Source: Sulfurospirillum sp.
GTDB lineage: Bacteria; Campylobacterota; Campylobacteria; Campylobacterales; Sulfurospirillaceae
NCBI GenBank assembly: GCA_045047115.1
Contig: JASFYR010000005.1
Location: 45,660-109,659 of the forward strand
Length of the DNA: 64,000 nucleotides
Direction: 5' to 3'
Shown here: positions 18,039 through 44,439 of the stretch, piece after piece
How the letters are laid out: each line of letters starts with the position of its first letter
Numbering within the stretch: position 1 is the first letter of the stretch
Translations under genes and position numbers: made by a program
Notes under the pieces: model-generated
What the model was told of the DNA's origin: nothing
The model's input: only the letters and a program-made list of their open reading frames with translations
The model's database searches: none

Positions 18039-19277
18039 CTAAACAACTCCTGCGTTAGAAACAGGTTCCACTTTCGGTTTGGTATCTTTTAAAAGCAGGG
18101 TAGGCTCATCAAAAGGTGCCAGTCGCTCCATAAAATCTATTATGCTTAGTAGTGGGGTAGCATAAAAAAATTTTAGTTGATGATTGTATTGCCATAGTTT
18201 GTCAGCATAGATAAGCACAAGATAGGGTATGTCACTAATACCATCACCATTTTTGTCAAATCCTATATACCTATCCCAATAATTTTCCTCTATACTGTTT
18301 TCGTCATGAAACTCTCCACTAACATCCTTTACAACATCTTCCAGGTTTCCTACGATATTGTTATACTTGATGGTGTTGTTTTTTATGGTTGTATAGAAAT
18401 GAAAAGCAACATTGTTATTTATGATACTATTGTACTTTATATATCTTTGCATTCCAATCTCTACCGGGCTTGAGCTTATGTAGATAGCTTGAGCATGTCC
18501 GCTTAGAGTGTTGTGGCTGACATGTATATTTTTGCCACCATCTAACATGATGCCAATACCAGTACTGAGGTGAGTTTTTATGATGATGTTGTTAGCTATG
18601 TTGATATTTTTTCCACCCTTGCATCTTACTCCTACATAATTTGAATATATTTTGTTGGATCTTATAGATATATCGTTACTCATATCGCTTAACACTCCAT
18701 ATCTTCCATTTTTCATAGTGTTGTTTTTTATTTTGTTGTGATTTGATCTGCTTAGGGCTATGTCTCTGCTTAGGGAGAGATTATTGTTTTCTATGAGATT
18801 ATTGCTTGAATTATATAGTCGTATTCCGTCACCTCTGTTGTCAACCACCTTTTCTTTATATGATGTTATTGTATTGTCTATGATTTTAGAGTATTTTGTA
18901 TTGTGAAATACAATTCCAAAGAGCGTTTTGTAAAAGTTGCAGTTTTTTATCTCTACATGTAAAGCATTCTCTACTTTGACGCCACTGTCAAGATTGTATC
19001 TTTGGTGTCCACTCCCCCTTATGGTGAGATTTTCGATATTTACATCAGAGCTTTTAATAGTTATTACTGTACCATTTCCAGAATTTTCTATGATGCTGTC
19101 TTTCCCTGCTCCGGATATTATCAAAGGTTTGTCAATAATAATAGGACCTTTAAATACCCCTTTGGGTAGTTCTATTTTTGAGCCTGGTGTTGCAAGAGTT
19201 ATGATCTGCTTTAAGCTCTGGTTTGCCAGTAGTGGCAGAGTCAAAAAAAGAGTGAAGATTATAAAAGATTTTCTCAT
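18039..19277 (-). CDS. nosD: NosD-like periplasmic beta-helix protein (N2O reductase maturation family)
   Basis: Signal peptide; GPIIIDKPL; RGDGIRLYNS; parallel beta-helix repeats; NYWDRYIGFDKNGDGISDIPY; LLKDTKP. Confidence 0.85.
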   Translation of the reverse strand: MRKSFIIFTLFLTLPLLANQSLKQIITLATPGSKIELPKGVFKGPIIIDKPLIISGAGKDSIIENSGNGTVITIKSSDVNIENLTIRGSGHQRYNLDSGVKVENALHVEIKNCNFYKTLFGIVFHNTKYSKIIDNTITSYKEKVVDNRGDGIRLYNSSNNLIENNNLSLSRDIALSRSNHNKIKNNTMKNGRYGVLSDMSNDISIRSNKIYSNYVGVRCKGGKNINIANNIIIKTHLSTGIGIMLDGGKNIHVSHNTLSGHAQAIYISSSPVEIGMQRYIKYNSIINNNVAFHFYTTIKNNTIKYNNIVGNLEDVVKDVSGEFHDENSIEENYWDRYIGFDKNGDGISDIPYLVLIYADKLWQYNHQLKFFYATPLLSIIDFMERLAPFDEPTLLLKDTKPKVEPVSNAGVV

Positions 19278-19934
19278 CTATGACCTCTTTATGGCAAATT
19301 TTTGAGCTCTTATAGTGATGTCAGTTGTAACAAATGGTGAGTTTATGATCTCTAGCACATTTTTGGCTATATCTTTAGGGTCTATGTAGCTCTGTTTATC
19401 ATCTGTGGGCTCAAACTGTAAGTCATCAAAAAAATCAGTTTTAGTGATGTCTGGATTTATGCTTGTTACTCTCACGCCTGATTTTCTCAACTCTTCAAAC
19501 AAGCAGAGTGAAAAGTCTCTAAGTCCACTTTTTGTTGCGGTATAAAGAGCTGAAAATTTTGAGTGTTTTGTAGCTTCAATCGAGGAGATGTTTATGATGT
19601 GACCTTTTGTCTTTTTTAGGTTTCTTAGGCAGAGATTGCAAAGCAAAATAGGAGCTCTTAGATTTACATCTATCAACTCTTCAATTTTTGAAAGTGAGAT
19701 CTCTTCATGGGGTTGAAATATTCCTACTCCCGCACAGTTTATAAGCAGGTCTATATCTGTTGATTTTAAGAGTTTTTTTATCTCTGTATGTAGAATTTTT
19801 GTGTCTCTTAAATCACATACTATTTCAGAGTCTCTCCTGCCTATGCCAAAAACCCTATATCCGTTTTTTTCAAGCTCCTCTTCTATGGCTTTGCCTATCC
19901 CGCTACTGATTCCACTCATAAGGGCAGTTTTCAT
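19278..19934 (-). CDS. Short-chain dehydrogenase/reductase
   Basis: SGISSGIG, INCAGVG, YTATK (YxxxK). Start placed at ATG 19934, overlapping the radical SAM stop. Confidence 0.9.
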   Translation of the reverse strand: MKTALMSGISSGIGKAIEEELEKNGYRVFGIGRRDSEIVCDLRDTKILHTEIKKLLKSTDIDLLINCAGVGIFQPHEEISLSKIEELIDVNLRAPILLCNLCLRNLKKTKGHIINISSIEATKHSKFSALYTATKSGLRDFSLCLFEELRKSGVRVTSINPDITKTDFFDDLQFEPTDDKQSYIDPKDIAKNVLEIINSPFVTTDITIRAQKFAIKRS

Positions 19935-21175
19935 TTTGATTTTCCGTCTATACAATTTTTATATGAGTTTATCATATCTTTTTCCATCTCTTCGTTTGAG
20001 CTATATTCGTATCCAAATACATCTTTCCACAAACTATAGTCTTCCATGCATAGATAGAAATAAACATCCTTATGCCAAGGTTTAAATGCATCATATACCC
20101 CTTTAAACATCTCTTTTTTTATTTCCATGGGATATGAGAATTTACCGCTTGCATCTATGAGAGGCATCTGTAAAATCTTGCTTTTGAAGCTCCTTTGTCT
20201 TAGTTTTTTTATGACAGGTTTTATAAATGTTAAAGTTCCCATTGAGATGAGTACTACTTCGCTGGGTTTGAACATTTTTATGAGTCTTTGCACTATGCCT
20301 CTATACTCGCTCAAATAGTTCTCATAAACAACTATCGGATGGAAATGAAATCCCACAAGCACACCTTTATCGCTTAAAGCTCTAGCACTTTCTATTCTCT
20401 CATTGAGCGAGGCGCTAAGATGCTCTTCGTTTTCTATGATAGTAGTTGGATTTAGCGACCATGTGCAGAGTATATTTTTAGGCACATCGTTTTCCAAAAG
20501 ATATTTTATGTTTTTTGATTTGCTTTTTAGCTCCAAAATCACATTGGGATTTTTGCTTGCAAACTCAAAAAGCGCCTCCATAATTCCCCCTTTGTTTCCC
20601 CAAAGAAGAGAGTCCGAACTCTGCCCGGTGCCTATATGATAGTTTTTGTTTGGGTCAAGTTTTAGGTTTTTGAGTTTTTCTGCAAAATTTTTATCAAAAG
20701 CGATTTTGTTTTCATTGTAAAATGACTGAATAGAGCAGTAGGAGCAGTCAAATCCGCAACTCTCCACCGCGTCTAGTGTTAAAAGATTGCAACATCTGGT
20801 TTTTGGTGATGCCACAGGGCACTTTCCAAGGCCTAGCTCCTCCTTGCTGTTTTGTATAAAACTAATCTTTCTTGAGTAATTATAAGAGGTGGAGTTAGAA
20901 AACTCTTTATAGCTTTTTGGTCTGCTTTTTAGCTCTTCCCAGATACTCTTAATATGCCCAAATGTCTTTTTGTGGTTCTCTTTGTCCTGCCATACTTCAT
21001 ATACTCTTTTCTCATCCCACATCTCAAAGTCGATGCTTATGTCTATCAACTGTTTTAACTCCTGAAAAGAGAAGCCGTATTTCAAAGCTTTTTGCTCTAT
21101 AAATTCTTTGGTTTTTGAATCTAGTTGCAAAAAGTATGTGTTTTTTATATTTTTTTTAAACTTTTCTTTAAACAT
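19931..21175 (-). CDS. Spore photoproduct lyase (SplB)-like radical SAM protein
   Basis: CGFDCSYC (CxxxCxxC); LELKSKS; WSLNP; ASLNERI; GFHFHPIV; YLCME. Confidence 0.88.
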   Translation of the reverse strand: MFKEKFKKNIKNTYFLQLDSKTKEFIEQKALKYGFSFQELKQLIDISIDFEMWDEKRVYEVWQDKENHKKTFGHIKSIWEELKSRPKSYKEFSNSTSYNYSRKISFIQNSKEELGLGKCPVASPKTRCCNLLTLDAVESCGFDCSYCSIQSFYNENKIAFDKNFAEKLKNLKLDPNKNYHIGTGQSSDSLLWGNKGGIMEALFEFASKNPNVILELKSKSKNIKYLLENDVPKNILCTWSLNPTTIIENEEHLSASLNERIESARALSDKGVLVGFHFHPIVVYENYLSEYRGIVQRLIKMFKPSEVVLISMGTLTFIKPVIKKLRQRSFKSKILQMPLIDASGKFSYPMEIKKEMFKGVYDAFKPWHKDVYFYLCMEDYSLWKDVFGYEYSSNEEMEKDMINSYKNCIDGKSK

Positions 21176-21689
21176 ATCTTTCCCATTTTTTTATACTCTG
21201 CTTTATCAACTCTTCAACAAACTCTTTTTTGGGGATAGTTGTATCCAAGTAGTCTGAAACCACCTTAAAAACAAATATGGAGCCTGAATGTAACTCTTTG
21301 TTGCAAATTTGAAGAAAACTTTTTGCTTCCATGTCTACCAATGTCGTGTTTAGTTTGGCCTGGTCGTTTAGCGGTTTTAAGACAGATGTGATATCGGCAA
21401 AATTTATATCTCTTAATTTTTGATTTACACAAAAAACGGAGCCTATTTTTATATCTGTATTTTTACATCCCGCTATGCCTATATTTATAGCTTTTCGCAC
21501 CTTGAATCTCTCAAAAACAGCTTCTACATGTATAACATTTTTCGCACCCATTCCGCTGACTATAAGCATGATGGTATCTTTTGTGTAGATTCTATATGGT
21601 TTCTTTTGCAAACACCGCATTTTAAAATGCTCAATTATAGCTTTAGCTTCAGCAAAAAGTGCAGTGTGTATCAAAGTGTAACTAGACAT
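21168..21689 (-). CDS. Nucleoside phosphorylase/nucleosidase (PNP_UDP_1)-like protein
   Basis: TALFAEAK, SGMG, INIGIAG, VDMEA, KVVSD. Confidence 0.8.
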   Translation of the reverse strand: MSSYTLIHTALFAEAKAIIEHFKMRCLQKKPYRIYTKDTIMLIVSGMGAKNVIHVEAVFERFKVRKAINIGIAGCKNTDIKIGSVFCVNQKLRDINFADITSVLKPLNDQAKLNTTLVDMEAKSFLQICNKELHSGSIFVFKVVSDYLDTTIPKKEFVEELIKQSIKKWERYV

Positions 21690-21735: not shown

Positions 21736-22545
21736 CTAATTGTTGACTTTTTGTACATTTTTTGGTTTTTTATTATAAAATAAAACCATCAACAACAAAG
21801 AGCCGATATAAACCGATACTTCAATCAAGGAGGGATTGGCATTGTAGCCAAACAGAGATTTCATAAAACTTCCAAAAGTACCGTTTTCGCTTATTAGATA
21901 GTTAATGCTCCAAACATGCTCAACAAAAACGGGGATGATGCCGACCTCTTGAAATTCGTGAACTCCACGGGCAAACAGTCCTGTTGCAAAGAGAATCAAA
22001 AGTACACTGCTTATATTGAAAAAATATCTTAGGTTTATGCCTTTTAATCCAATATATACAGTGCATCCTGCAAGCAACCCTACTGCTAAACCAAGTATTG
22101 CAAAAAGCATAGAAACAGTACTCTGCTCAGAGGCGATTGCATTTAGAAAAAATGTAGTTTCGACTCCTTCTCGTAAAATTGAGATGAAAACTAAAAATGC
22201 AAGGCCGAAGCCATTGTTTTTTTTCAGTGCGAAATCTACTTTGTTTTTGATTAGTGTTGATGTTTCTCTTTTGTCCGCCATCCAAGCAATCAAATATACA
22301 ATCAAAATTGCACCCAATATCATAGTGATACCTTCAAAAATCTGCTCATACAGACCATCAAAGTTGCCAACCAACAGGTGAAAACCAAGCGCACCCAACA
22401 GGCTTCCTGCTATACCAAAAATTATACCAATATAGACAAATCCTTTTAACGCGCTTTTCCCCGTTTTTTTCAAATAGCTAAATATAATGCCAACAATCAA
22501 AGCAGCCTCTAGAGACTCTCTTAGTGTTATAATAAACTCTTCCAT
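21736..22545 (-). CDS. FTR1 family high-affinity iron permease
   Basis: Two RExxE motifs (LRESLEA, LREGVET); about 7 TM helices. Confidence 0.92.
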   Translation of the reverse strand: MEEFIITLRESLEAALIVGIIFSYLKKTGKSALKGFVYIGIIFGIAGSLLGALGFHLLVGNFDGLYEQIFEGITMILGAILIVYLIAWMADKRETSTLIKNKVDFALKKNNGFGLAFLVFISILREGVETTFFLNAIASEQSTVSMLFAILGLAVGLLAGCTVYIGLKGINLRYFFNISSVLLILFATGLFARGVHEFQEVGIIPVFVEHVWSINYLISENGTFGSFMKSLFGYNANPSLIEVSVYIGSLLLMVLFYNKKPKNVQKVNN

Positions 22546-22726: not shown

Positions 22727-22755
22727 AGTAAAAACTGATAGCAAAGGAGGATTTG

Positions 22756-23307
22756 ATGAAAGAGGTACTTCTCGTATTGGCTAGAGCTGCTATAGGTGAA
22801 GCTATTGGAGTCAGACAAGATGTCAGCTTGCAAAATATGTTAGAGAAAAATCCTTGGCTTGAAGAGGAGGGTGCAGTATTTGTAACACTCGCGATAGATG
22901 GTAATCTAAGAGGTTGTATCGGTTCACTTGCTGCACATAGAAAATTATATGAAGATGTAATCTACAATGCAAGAAGTGCTACACTAAATGACCCTCGTTT
23001 CAAACCTTTGAGTAAAGAAGAGTTTGAGCTTATAAGCATAGAAGTATCGATACTCTCAAAGCCTGAACCTTTGATATATGACAGTGTCGATGCCCTAAAA
23101 GCAAGGCTCAGAGTGGGCATAGATGGCGTGGTTTTAAAATCTGGCTCCAATCAGGCGACTTTTTTACCTCAAGTCTGGGAGCAGTTGCCGACATTTGAGC
23201 TCTTTTTTGCCCATCTTTGTCAAAAAGCAGGCTTGGAAGGTGATTGTTTGAAGCATCATCCTGATATATTAACATATCAGGTTCAAGAATACAGTGAGGT
23301 AAAATAA
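22756..23307 (+). CDS. amrA: AMMECR1 domain protein (AmmeMemoRadiSam system protein A)
   Basis: AVFVTL, LRGCIG, DPRFKP, IEVSILS, ATFLPQVW, LCQKAG. Confidence 0.92.
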   Translation: MKEVLLVLARAAIGEAIGVRQDVSLQNMLEKNPWLEEEGAVFVTLAIDGNLRGCIGSLAAHRKLYEDVIYNARSATLNDPRFKPLSKEEFELISIEVSILSKPEPLIYDSVDALKARLRVGIDGVVLKSGSNQATFLPQVWEQLPTFELFFAHLCQKAGLEGDCLKHHPDILTYQVQEYSEVK

Positions 23308-23308
23308 G

Positions 23309-24106
23309 ATGAGAAAAGCAAGTGTAGCGGGAGCTTTTTATCCAAATTCATGTGATGAGATAAAGAAGTATTTTGAGCTCTTTAGTAAAACTTTGGATGA
23401 GCAGATAGAGGAAAATGACAAACTCTATACGCTAAAGCCAAGAGCCATAATATCTCCGCATGCAGGGTATATCTATAGTGGATTTACAGCAAATATCGCT
23501 TACAGAATTCTTAAGAATTCAAATCCAAAAAGAGTCATAGTCATAGGCCCTAGTCACAGAGTCTATCTAAATGGCATCAGTGTAACAAATGAGGATTCCT
23601 ATGAGAGCCCTTGCGGTAAACTGGATATAGATTTGGATTACCTGGAGGATTTGACCAAAAAATTTGATTTGCAAAACATAAAAGAGGCATATGAGCAAGA
23701 ACACAGCACAGAAGTTCAAATGCCTTTTATAAAATACTATATACCAAACGCAAAAATAATAGAGTTGATTTATGGCGATATAGAGTATTCAACTTTAGCA
23801 TCACTTATGGAGTATGTGCTCAAGGATGAGGAAAATGTTGCGGTAATCAGTACTGATTTGAGTCATTTTTATGATCTTAAAAAAGCAAATATGCTTGATA
23901 ATATCTGCCTTAAGGCCATAGCAAATCTTGATATCAATGAGTTTGAACAAGGATGTGAAGCTTGCGGTGCCACTGGAGTAAAAGCCATATTAAAGTGTGC
24001 CAAAAAGATGAAACTAAAATCACTACTTCTGGACTATCGCACAAGTGCTGATGCTAGTAAAGATGAGAGTAGAGTGGTGGGATATATGAGTGGGTTGTTC
24101 TATTAA
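23309..24106 (+). CDS. amrB: MEMO1 family protein (AmmeMemoRadiSam system protein B)
   Basis: RKASVAGAFYP, PHAGYIYSG, GPSH, EHSTEVQMPF, STDLSHF, VVGY. Confidence 0.92.
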   Translation: MRKASVAGAFYPNSCDEIKKYFELFSKTLDEQIEENDKLYTLKPRAIISPHAGYIYSGFTANIAYRILKNSNPKRVIVIGPSHRVYLNGISVTNEDSYESPCGKLDIDLDYLEDLTKKFDLQNIKEAYEQEHSTEVQMPFIKYYIPNAKIIELIYGDIEYSTLASLMEYVLKDEENVAVISTDLSHFYDLKKANMLDNICLKAIANLDINEFEQGCEACGATGVKAILKCAKKMKLKSLLLDYRTSADASKDESRVVGYMSGLFY

Positions 24107-43571: not shown

Positions 43572-43743
43572 ATAAAATGAAATTACAGAGCGTTAGCTCG
43601 TGCTTCAGTCGCGAGGAATTTGTCAGGGGCTTTGCTCCTTACAAAGGGGACAATAAAATGAAATTACAGAGCGTTAGCTCGTGCTTCAGTCGCGAGGAAT
43701 TTGTCAGGGGCTTTGCTCCTTACAAAGGGGATATAAAATGAAA
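43572..43743 (+). repeat. Tandem pair (81 + 80 bp) of the structured intergenic element
   Basis: Units 43572-43652 and 43653-43732 are identical over the first 79 bp. ATAAAATGAAA occurs at 43572, 43653 and 43733. Confidence 0.95.
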
Positions 43744-44439
43744 ATTGCTATTTTAGGAGCTATGCCTGAAGAGGTAGAGCCGTTATTAGATTATTTTGAG
43801 AGTTATAAAACTGTTGAGTATGCTAAAAATAAATTTTATACTCTAACATACAAAGGGTGTGAAATAGTCATTGCTTATAGTAAGATTGGAAAGGTAAATG
43901 CCACCATAACAGCTACAACAATGATAGAAAAATTTGGTTGTGAAAAACTGCTTTTTAGTGGAGTAGCCGGAGCTGTAAGCGATGAGTTGAAAATAGGGGA
44001 TTTGGTAGTAGCTACAAAACTGGCTCAGCATGATTTGGATATATCCGCTTTTGGACATCCTTTTGGATATGTGCCGGAAGGTTCAGTTTATGAAAAAACA
44101 GATAAGTTACTCATAGAGATAGCTAAAGAGGTAGCGTTTGAAAAAAACCTACCCCTAAAAGAGACGGTTATCGCTACTGGAGATCAATTTGTTTGTGATC
44201 CGGATAGAAAAAAATGGATAGAAAAAACTTTTGGAGCCGGTGCTTTAGAGATGGAAGGGGCAGCTGTTGCTCTGGTTTGCAATGCTCTTGATGTACCGTC
44301 TTTTATACTTCGTTCTATCAGTGATGCAGCAGACATGGATGCCGGTTTTGATTTTGACAAATTCTTGGAGTCCTCAGCAAAAATCAGCGCTGGGTTTATA
44401 ATCACTATGGTTGAAAAAATAATTGATAAAACTAAGTAA
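43738..44439 (+). CDS. mtnN: 5'-methylthioadenosine/S-adenosylhomocysteine nucleosidase (Pfs; in this phylum also aminofutalosine nucleosidase)
   Basis: MKIAILGAMPEE, SKIGKVNA, SGVAG, ATGDQF, EMEGAA, RSISD. Start placed at ATG 43738. Confidence 0.95.
   Translation: MKIAILGAMPEEVEPLLDYFESYKTVEYAKNKFYTLTYKGCEIVIAYSKIGKVNATITATTMIEKFGCEKLLFSGVAGAVSDELKIGDLVVATKLAQHDLDISAFGHPFGYVPEGSVYEKTDKLLIEIAKEVAFEKNLPLKETVIATGDQFVCDPDRKKWIEKTFGAGALEMEGAAVALVCNALDVPSFILRSISDAADMDAGFDFDKFLESSAKISAGFIITMVEKIIDKTK

Follow-up and report, generated by a model that had tools for sequence, protein, structure and literature searches.

A radical S-adenosylmethionine enzyme with the fold of spore photoproduct lyase belongs to a conserved multi-enzyme system in Sulfurospirillum and other bacteria

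[quoted passage not shown] They lie in a stretch of 64,000 nucleotides, hereafter the window, from assembly GCA_045047115.1 (contig JASFYR010000005.1, positions 45,660 to 109,659 of the forward strand). We found that the radical SAM enzyme is probably not a spore photoproduct (SP) lyase and that its family is part of a multi-enzyme system conserved in many phyla, with the enzyme in about 60% of the sampled Desulfobacterota genomes and in 53 of 301 Campylobacterota genomes. The initial annotation of this DNA had described a module of three genes; a family 2 glycosyltransferase (GT2) proved to be a fourth member. In the explanation that we favour, at a probability of about 0.35, the system would oxidise a nucleic-acid base without oxygen and glycosylate it, while the nucleosidase and the SDR would clear 5'-deoxyadenosine. 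The features, in window coordinates, are as follows.

21168..21689, minus strand: nucleosidase, 173 aa, short MTAN/HpnG/MqnB type, dedicated clade
19931..21175, minus strand: SPL-fold radical SAM enzyme, 414 aa, "long" four-Cys subtype
20879..21175, minus strand: N-terminal helical module, enzyme residues 1-99 (predicted structure, HHalign)
20789..20821, minus strand: Cys119 and Cys128-Cys129; Cys119 aligns with the H-donor Cys of clostridial SPL and Ser76 of the G. thermodenitrificans (Gt) enzyme
20735..20758, minus strand: CX3CX2C radical SAM cluster motif, C140, C144 and C147 (CGFDCSYC, residues 140-147)
20612..20632, minus strand: GTGQSSD, residues 182-188, with Gln185 at the position of the Bacillus H-donor Cys
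20042..20056, minus strand: YLCME, residues 374-378, with Cys376 as the fourth extra Cys
19278..19934, minus strand: classical SDR, 218 aa counted from ATG, dedicated clade
43738..44439, plus strand: mtnN-type housekeeping nucleosidase (PF01048, 181 bits)

Fold and active site of the radical SAM enzyme

The enzyme has a partial TIM barrel that matches SPL and bears the CX3CX2C motif, which places it among the radical SAM proteins with an SPL-like fold, and it was recognised by PF20903 (41 bits over cut-off). A superposition on SplB had been proposed in the initial annotation; in a structural comparison, the top match of the AlphaFold (AF2) model (pLDDT 95) was the SPL of G. thermodenitrificans (Z 26.4, root-mean-square deviation 2.4 A, 269 residues aligned), with residues 100-377 aligned to SPL 56-341 at 18% identity. 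Other radical SAM enzymes were far below SPL, MqnE, for instance, reaching Z 14.8. The score against the SplB model TIGR04070 was 53.7 bits, short of the curated cut-off of 400.

The SPL residues named in passages of PMC3467042 were mapped by hand count on the profile alignment and tallied in 101 homologues. Gln185 aligned with Cys140 of the G. thermodenitrificans SPL (E 2e-35), a position occupied by Gln in 58, Glu in 42 and Asp in one of the homologues, and the substitution of Gln for the Bacillus H-donor Cys that had been read by eye therefore stands. The argument built upon it, that the enzyme lacks an H-donor Cys, fails because Cys119 aligns with the donor position of clostridial SP lyases, which are likewise without a Cys in that segment. 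In the clostridial SplB examined, Ala stands in the segment of Cys140 and a Cys precedes the cluster motif by 14 residues, and the portions of two reports that bear on this point describe an upstream Cys as H donor in the clostridial enzymes (Ca C74, equivalent to Gt S76; PMC3467042, PMC5368176). Cys119 aligned exactly with this position (HHalign) and was conserved in 100 of the 101 homologues, and Cys128, Cys129 and Cys376 were conserved in 97, 101 and 101, respectively. Cys376 sits at the C-terminal end of SPL beside Tyr339 (model residue 377 aligns with SPL 341), and a Cys occupies the matching place in 15 of 19 enzymes of a short type described below. The four cysteines map near the substrate mouth and may form a metal site, supply a hydrogen donor, or both. 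D188, E215, H277 and E378 are invariant acid-base candidates.

Most of the other residues that define SP lyases were not retained. The relay Tyr98 is Ser148 in the window enzyme (S, I, F, A, T and V are the six commonest residues among the 101, with no Tyr), the lesion-binding Arg193 is Thr238 (Ser, Thr, Ala or Gly across the 101) and the lesion-binding Glu268 is Gly313 (Gly in 99). The phosphate-binding Arg273 is Thr316 (Thr in 54, Arg in 40), and the hairpin tip Arg304/Tyr305 falls in a six-residue deletion. The phosphate-binding Lys309 is retained as Lys345 (Lys in 99), and Tyr374 probably corresponds to the lesion-binding Tyr339 in the structural alignment. Because the lesion-binding Arg193 and Glu268, the relay Tyr and the hairpin tip are lost, and because of the gene context given below, the enzyme is probably not an SP lyase. 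Thus the earlier proposal of chemistry other than SP repair is supported, although not for the reason then given, the loss of the H-donor Cys.

The motifs CGFDCSYC and YLCME and the Cys cluster just upstream of the former (Cys119, 128 and 129) are present as first described. The N-terminal extension of 110 aa is better regarded as a swap, in which residues 1-99, a helical bundle in the predicted structure, replace SPL residues 1-55 at the start of its N-terminal alpha/beta domain, for a net excess of about 50 aa before the cluster motif.

The nucleosidase and the SDR

The initial identification of a nucleosidase-like protein and an SDR was borne out. The nucleosidase matched PF01048 (E 9e-10), with MTANs as its best solved relatives, and retains E14, D119-M120-E121, K142 and S145-D146 (conserved in 15-16 of 16). 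The catalytic E14, M120-E121 and D146 align with the MtnN of the same genome and make up the MTAN/HpnG/MqnB catalytic set; we take their counterparts in E. coli MTAN to be the catalytic Glu E12, the Met-Glu ribose motif E174 and the C-terminal Asp D197. Its middle loop is about 40-55 residues shorter than that of MTANs, it has no C-terminal helical tail, and it stayed below the NCBIfam cut-offs for MtnN, HpnG and MqnB (14-33 bits vs 74-187), with 20 of 187 bits for HpnG and 26 of 125 for futalosine hydrolase. As had been pointed out, the host already has mtnN, which lies in the window. A third nucleosidase in the genome, short and PNP/MqnB-like, is located between hisF and rlmN-like genes on another contig (C12:76942-77424; L053:1480-2037).

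The SDR meets the description of a classical SDR, with a TGxxxGIG-type start and an intact Ser/Tyr/Lys triad (S118, Y131 and K135) conserved in 16 of 16, and Arg33 suggests NADP(H) as cofactor. It scored 356 bits, and the genome's second-ranking SDR 98. Its longest open reading frame begins at TTG 19955 and its ATG at 19934; with the ATG start, the enzyme and SDR genes overlap by 4 nt (ATGA), and the nucleosidase and enzyme genes by 8 nt, as originally noted. The GC content of the trio resembles that of its flanks, and its nearest named homologues are found in Sulfurospirillaceae and Arcobacteraceae.

Co-inheritance, fusions and the fourth gene

The 301 Campylobacterota genomes, in which related genomes are not independent, were searched with single-protein queries at different thresholds, and matched the enzyme in 53, the nucleosidase in 39, the SDR in 49 and the GT2 in 26. 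The nucleosidase was present in 34 of the 53 enzyme-positive genomes and in 5 of the other 248, the SDR in 44 and 5, and the GT2 in 25 and 1, respectively; an enzyme of the short type is present in two of the "enzyme-negative" genomes (L049, L050). The distance to the enzyme was no more than 8 kb for the nucleosidase in 23 of 34 cases, for the SDR in 28 of 44 and for both in 21. The trio is patchily present inside Campylobacterota genera. Co-occurrence far above background, proposed from the outset as a check on the trio, supports the view that it is a conserved functional unit. Fusions point the same way: nucleosidase and enzyme are joined in six library proteins and at two loci, one from Fidelibacterota and one from Fusobacterium vincentii, where a 624-aa frame fuses the nucleosidase to a short-type enzyme and is followed by the SDR, with no GT2 in the locus (L304:3095-5895). 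A GT2-enzyme fusion was seen in one protein (a single record). Distinct from these is a 585-aa nucleosidase-radical SAM fusion (L163:298-2055) that resembles futalosine MqnB joined to MqnE/MqnC.

The GT2 of the system is encoded in the window's genome on another contig (C13; 392 bits vs 82 for the next GT2). The order GT2-nucleosidase-enzyme-SDR recurs in marine metagenome operons, and in sulfur-oxidising Gammaproteobacteria the nucleosidase orthologues lie in GT2-nucleosidase-SDR operons. Among 80 metagenome loci chosen by GT2, the nucleosidase was counted in 50, the enzyme in 31, an SDR match in 24 (some unrelated) and all three in 20; this is a loose count from many short contigs and a sample skewed to Gammaproteobacteria. 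By profile, the GT2 was not found in four of five enzyme-positive Campylobacterota genomes retested, and the fifth gave a borderline match.

Outside Campylobacterota, the trio is less tightly kept together. Among 47 genomes with a long-type enzyme (larger contigs only, from metagenome-assembled genomes of unstated completeness), 44 had the GT2, 21 a nucleosidase orthologue and 12 a strong SDR, and among 121 Desulfobacterota genomes 64 had both enzyme and GT2, 8 the enzyme only (7 of these carry weak or other enzyme types), 2 the GT2 only and 47 neither. At 80 long-type loci, a nucleosidase was nearby in only 10 (nine from Campylobacterota and one fusion), and outside Campylobacterota no neighbour of the long enzyme was conserved beyond lineage synteny. 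A gene for a ParB_N protein that has a GxRR-like box is the enzyme's neighbour at 21 of 29 Desulfobacterota loci, in many cases following the GT2; only 3 of the 29 had an adjacent gene of the MTAN type.

Subtypes of the enzyme and a shared helical module

Three subtypes of the enzyme were distinguished. The window enzyme is of the long type, marked by GTGQ, and a second type also has the four cysteines but reads GTGE. In the third, short type, which occupies the same operon slot as the long one, Tyr stands at the position of Cys140 and the Cys cluster is missing. An unrooted tree of 42 rows set SplB apart on a long branch of its own and put the long type within the GTGE group, on one side of a 100/100 branch (supports 99/93 and 100/100). 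The window subtype seems to derive from the ParB-partnered four-Cys group. The ParB-partnered subtype keeps both R273 and K309 (SPL numbering), found as R272 and K302 in 30 of 30 ParB-type enzymes. In a Desulfobacterium metagenome-assembled genome, the intact gene of the long enzyme is immediately preceded by a second, truncated copy (L065:3832-4641).

At shared loci, the nucleosidase has no tail where the enzyme is long (28 of 28) and carries a tail of 80 residues where the enzyme is short (25 of 25); these counts leave aside two further, fused loci and include some duplicates of one genome. Some GTGE enzymes have N-terminal extensions that match the C-terminal domain of the ParB-like protein (98%, 1e-14); the match of that domain to residues 14-64 of the window enzyme is weaker (HHalign probability 41.5%, P 2.7e-4), and the enzyme module weakly matches the nucleosidase tails (P 0.0045; top scores of 11.7 vs 8.7 in shuffles). 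An atlas search with enzyme residues 1-100 returned only unnamed matches at 0.80-0.81, within the chance range. From the alignments and the complementary distribution, the helical module of the window enzyme is likely to be homologous to the ParB-like C-terminal domain and to the tail of the long nucleosidases. We infer that a single module is needed by the enzyme and is carried by whichever neighbour is at hand: the enzyme itself, the nucleosidase or the ParB-like partner.

Proposed function

In the favoured scheme, the enzyme would act by hydrogen abstraction on a pyrimidine in nucleic acid (DNA, possibly tRNA), and the methyl group of the pyrimidine would be oxidised without oxygen, giving a new hydroxyl to which the GT2 would attach a sugar as an optional capping step. 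The extra cysteines would hold a second metal site that takes the electron, and SAM would be used stoichiometrically because the relay Tyr is lost. The nucleosidase and the SDR would form an optional arm that disposes of the 5'-deoxyadenosine made at each turnover, and the helical module would keep this arm attached to the enzyme. Each chemical step is a prediction that builds on what was observed, namely the fold, the cluster motif, the four extra cysteines, the co-inheritance and the fusions.

A nucleic-acid substrate is proposed because SPL binds a thymine dinucleotide, and K309 is kept in the window enzyme and both R273 and K309 in the ParB subtype. The GT2 partner and the ParB-partnered relatives shift the odds further in this direction. 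Phage thymine dioxygenases, which require a ParB-like activator or sit with glycosyltransferases (PMC13229309), offer a precedent. The combination of hydrogen abstraction, glycosylation and disposal fits best because the enzyme is central, the GT2 and the nucleosidase with the SDR are each optional, and a ParB-like helper occurs in the group from which the window subtype seems to derive. Both arms are separately dispensable, as the counts from the 47 genomes (nucleosidase 21, SDR 12) and the Campylobacterota in which no GT2 was found indicate. In several Gammaproteobacteria, a gene named from its sequence as TrmO/TsaA-like follows the GT2-nucleosidase-SDR operon (L147, L150-L154), and tRNA is kept as a possible substrate because of this gene and other tRNA-enzyme neighbours.

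Several points weigh against this explanation. The reaction itself is a prediction, and to our knowledge there is no hydroxylase with an SPL fold. The hairpin tip R304/Y305 is deleted, R273 is Thr, and R193 and E268 are lost. MtnN is already in the host, so a second, enzyme-fused scavenger needs explaining. The homology of the helical module is weak, and the window's genome has no ParB-like partner besides ordinary ParB, with only a possible remnant on the enzyme. Viral scans with the long, short and ParB-type enzyme alignments gave no relative, the viral GT2 scan yielded generic GT2s only, with no enzyme nearby, two unannotated phage records matched at 20-27%, and PADLOC gave no informative defence-system match for the system.

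Alternative functions

A close rival is a route by adenosyl transfer, in which the 5'-deoxyadenosyl radical would add to an acceptor, the nucleosidase remove adenine, the SDR reduce the ribose and the GT2 glycosylate the product, as in the synthesis of hopanoid side chains or arsenosugars. This was essentially the HpnH/HpnG logic of the initial annotation, which did not include the GT2 and the ParB-partnered relatives, and it stays a strong candidate even though we hold it tentatively. The system has the same four kinds of enzyme as HpnH, HpnG, the reductase and HpnB/HpnI (passages of PMC4263297), in the conserved order GT2-nucleosidase-enzyme-SDR, and adenosylation by ArsS and Cys-based substrate binding in ArsL are described in parts of 10.1101/2024.02.01.577332. 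It also explains better why a dedicated, loop-less nucleosidase with its catalytic residues is fused to the enzyme despite MtnN. On the other hand, in Desulfobacterota and Spirochaetota the GT2 and the enzyme are retained where orthologues of the nucleosidase or the SDR are missing, so that stand-ins would be needed there, and the scarcity of adjacent MTAN-type genes in Desulfobacterota (3 of 29 loci), the short-type enzymes that fill the same operon slot without the Cys cluster, the lower structural match to MqnE (Z 14.8 vs 26 for SPL) and the unexplained ParB-like partner argue in the same direction. A hopanoid acceptor was rejected, since no match to squalene-hopene cyclase (PF13243) was found in the genome, the assembly being listed as 100% complete and the search controls being detected.

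A less probable function is the tailoring of a small-molecule sugar. The GT2 would make a glycoside or nucleotide sugar, the radical enzyme would dehydrate it or oxidise it to a ketone, the SDR would reduce the ketone, and the nucleosidase would relieve product inhibition. The radical and reductive steps would be of the AprD4/AprD3 kind. The tight coupling of GT2 and enzyme, the invariant D188, E215, H277 and E378, and the loss of the DNA hairpin tip agree with this, but the SDR is absent where the GT2 is present and the reverse, and the ParB-like partner is again unexplained.

Roughly on a par with the tailoring of a sugar, and likewise unlikely, is the repair of a DNA lesion other than SP, e.g. 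a dihydropyrimidine adduct substituted at C5. It would proceed by beta-scission of the SPL type, and Cys119 or Cys376 would donate the hydrogen. The SPL fold, Cys119 at the clostridial donor site, the retained K309 and probably Y339, and the ParB-like partner are consistent with it, and repair was proposed for the Nautilia homologue in a passage of PMC2628731. However, direct reversal has no role for a co-inherited GT2, and an E. coli-type LexA box was found upstream of only 1 of 43 GT2 operons (2 of 43 with one mismatch, vs 4.1 expected).

Finally, a true clostridial-type SP lyase with unrelated neighbours is very improbable, for although SPL is the only close solved structure, Cys119 aligns with the donor and databases annotate the family as SPL, TIGR04070 gave only 54 of 400 bits, R193 is replaced by T, S, A or G and E268 by G in 99 of 101, Y98 and the hairpin tip are gone, no gene for a small acid-soluble spore protein was found in the genome (the B. 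subtilis control was detected), SplB is a separate long branch, and the neighbours are co-inherited and fused.

Neighbouring genes

A nosD gene (18039-19277, minus strand; TIGR04247 over cut-off) begins one base past the SDR stop and may be co-transcribed with the trio; a second nosD, of 39% identity, is on contig C10. An FTR1/EfeU-type iron permease gene (21736-22545), likewise on the minus strand, is separated by 46 nt from the nucleosidase gene, on the upstream side of the latter. Neither nosD nor FTR1 was beside the trio in any of the other 29 loci compared (1.5-kb flanks). AmmeMemoRadiSam proteins A and B are encoded at 22753-24106 (plus strand), both over cut-off, and their radical SAM partner is not adjacent. 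At other loci, with names taken from sequence, a selD-like gene directly follows the long enzyme (L066:5293-6321, L119:2468-3511, L129:3379-4407), selD/selU-like genes are located within 5 kb upstream in two Campylobacterota loci (L032, L033), and Sulfurimonas-type loci have a gene for an NnrS-like membrane protein after the enzyme (L032:4512-5690, L033:4534-5700, L124:7247-8422) and Hsp20-like genes before it.

Significance and comparison with known systems

Many bacteria that do not sporulate have proteins of this family that carry the annotation spore photoproduct lyase, and such a protein underlies a vent DNA-repair story in at least one genome paper: the Nautilia paper describes an spl-like gene next to an SDR and proposes repair (PMC2628731). 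A literature search, which covered subscription journals thinly and article texts without supplements, found no description of the set of enzyme, nucleosidase, SDR and GT2. New here are the correction concerning Cys119, the finding that the long subtype falls inside the group with ParB partners, and the complementary way in which the helical module is carried by one protein or another. If the favoured explanation is true, the system would be the first in which pyrimidines of cellular nucleic acid are oxidised without oxygen and glycosylated; if adenosyl transfer is, it would be a new radical adenosylation pathway.

With SplB (EC 4.1.99.14; TIGR04070; G. thermodenitrificans structures 4FHC-4FHG, 4K9R and 4RH0), the window enzyme shares the fold of residues 100-377, the CX3CX2C motif with the Tyr96 equivalent, the D143/K174 region, K309 and a Cys that aligns with the clostridial donor position. 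It differs in Cys140, Tyr98, Arg193, Glu268, Arg273 and the hairpin tip, which are not kept, in its three further conserved cysteines and helical N-terminal module, and in the occurrence of its family in non-sporulating hosts with GT2, nucleosidase, SDR or ParB-like partners. The hopanoid enzymes HpnH, HpnG and HpnA/HpnB/HpnI likewise bring together a radical SAM enzyme, a short nucleosidase of its own, a protein of the reductase type and a GT2, whereas here there is no squalene-hopene cyclase, the HpnG model gives 20 of 187 bits and the enzyme has the SPL fold. The pairing of radical adenosylation with a later release of the base is known, and is represented by ArsS and by MqnE/MqnB in the futalosine pathway; here, in contrast, the futalosine hydrolase model gives 26 of 125 bits, a separate short nucleosidase is present together with MtnN, and no arsenic context was seen in the loci, although no search was aimed at one.

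Base J is made by JBP together with JGT, and the proposed scheme follows the same order of oxidation and glycosylation. The phage thymine dioxygenases (5mYOX, TET/JBP family), as portrayed in parts of PMC13229309, resemble it in that a pyrimidine methyl group is oxidised and then glycosylated, here as a proposal, and in the ParB-like helper, here in relatives of the enzyme. Theirs are iron enzymes of phages that depend on O2 and 2-oxoglutarate, whereas the enzyme considered here is a radical SAM protein of cellular chromosomes with a predicted reaction, and the window's genome is without a dedicated ParB. It is conceivable, though we advance it with some doubt, that thousands of anaerobic and marine bacteria possess an oxygen-independent counterpart of TET/JBP and its glycosyltransferase, in which a radical SAM enzyme descended from SPL, having a second metal site and ParB-derived targeting, would produce a hydroxymethyl and then a sugar-bearing pyrimidine (or a polyol derived from the ribose of SAM) in the cell's own chromosome or tRNA.

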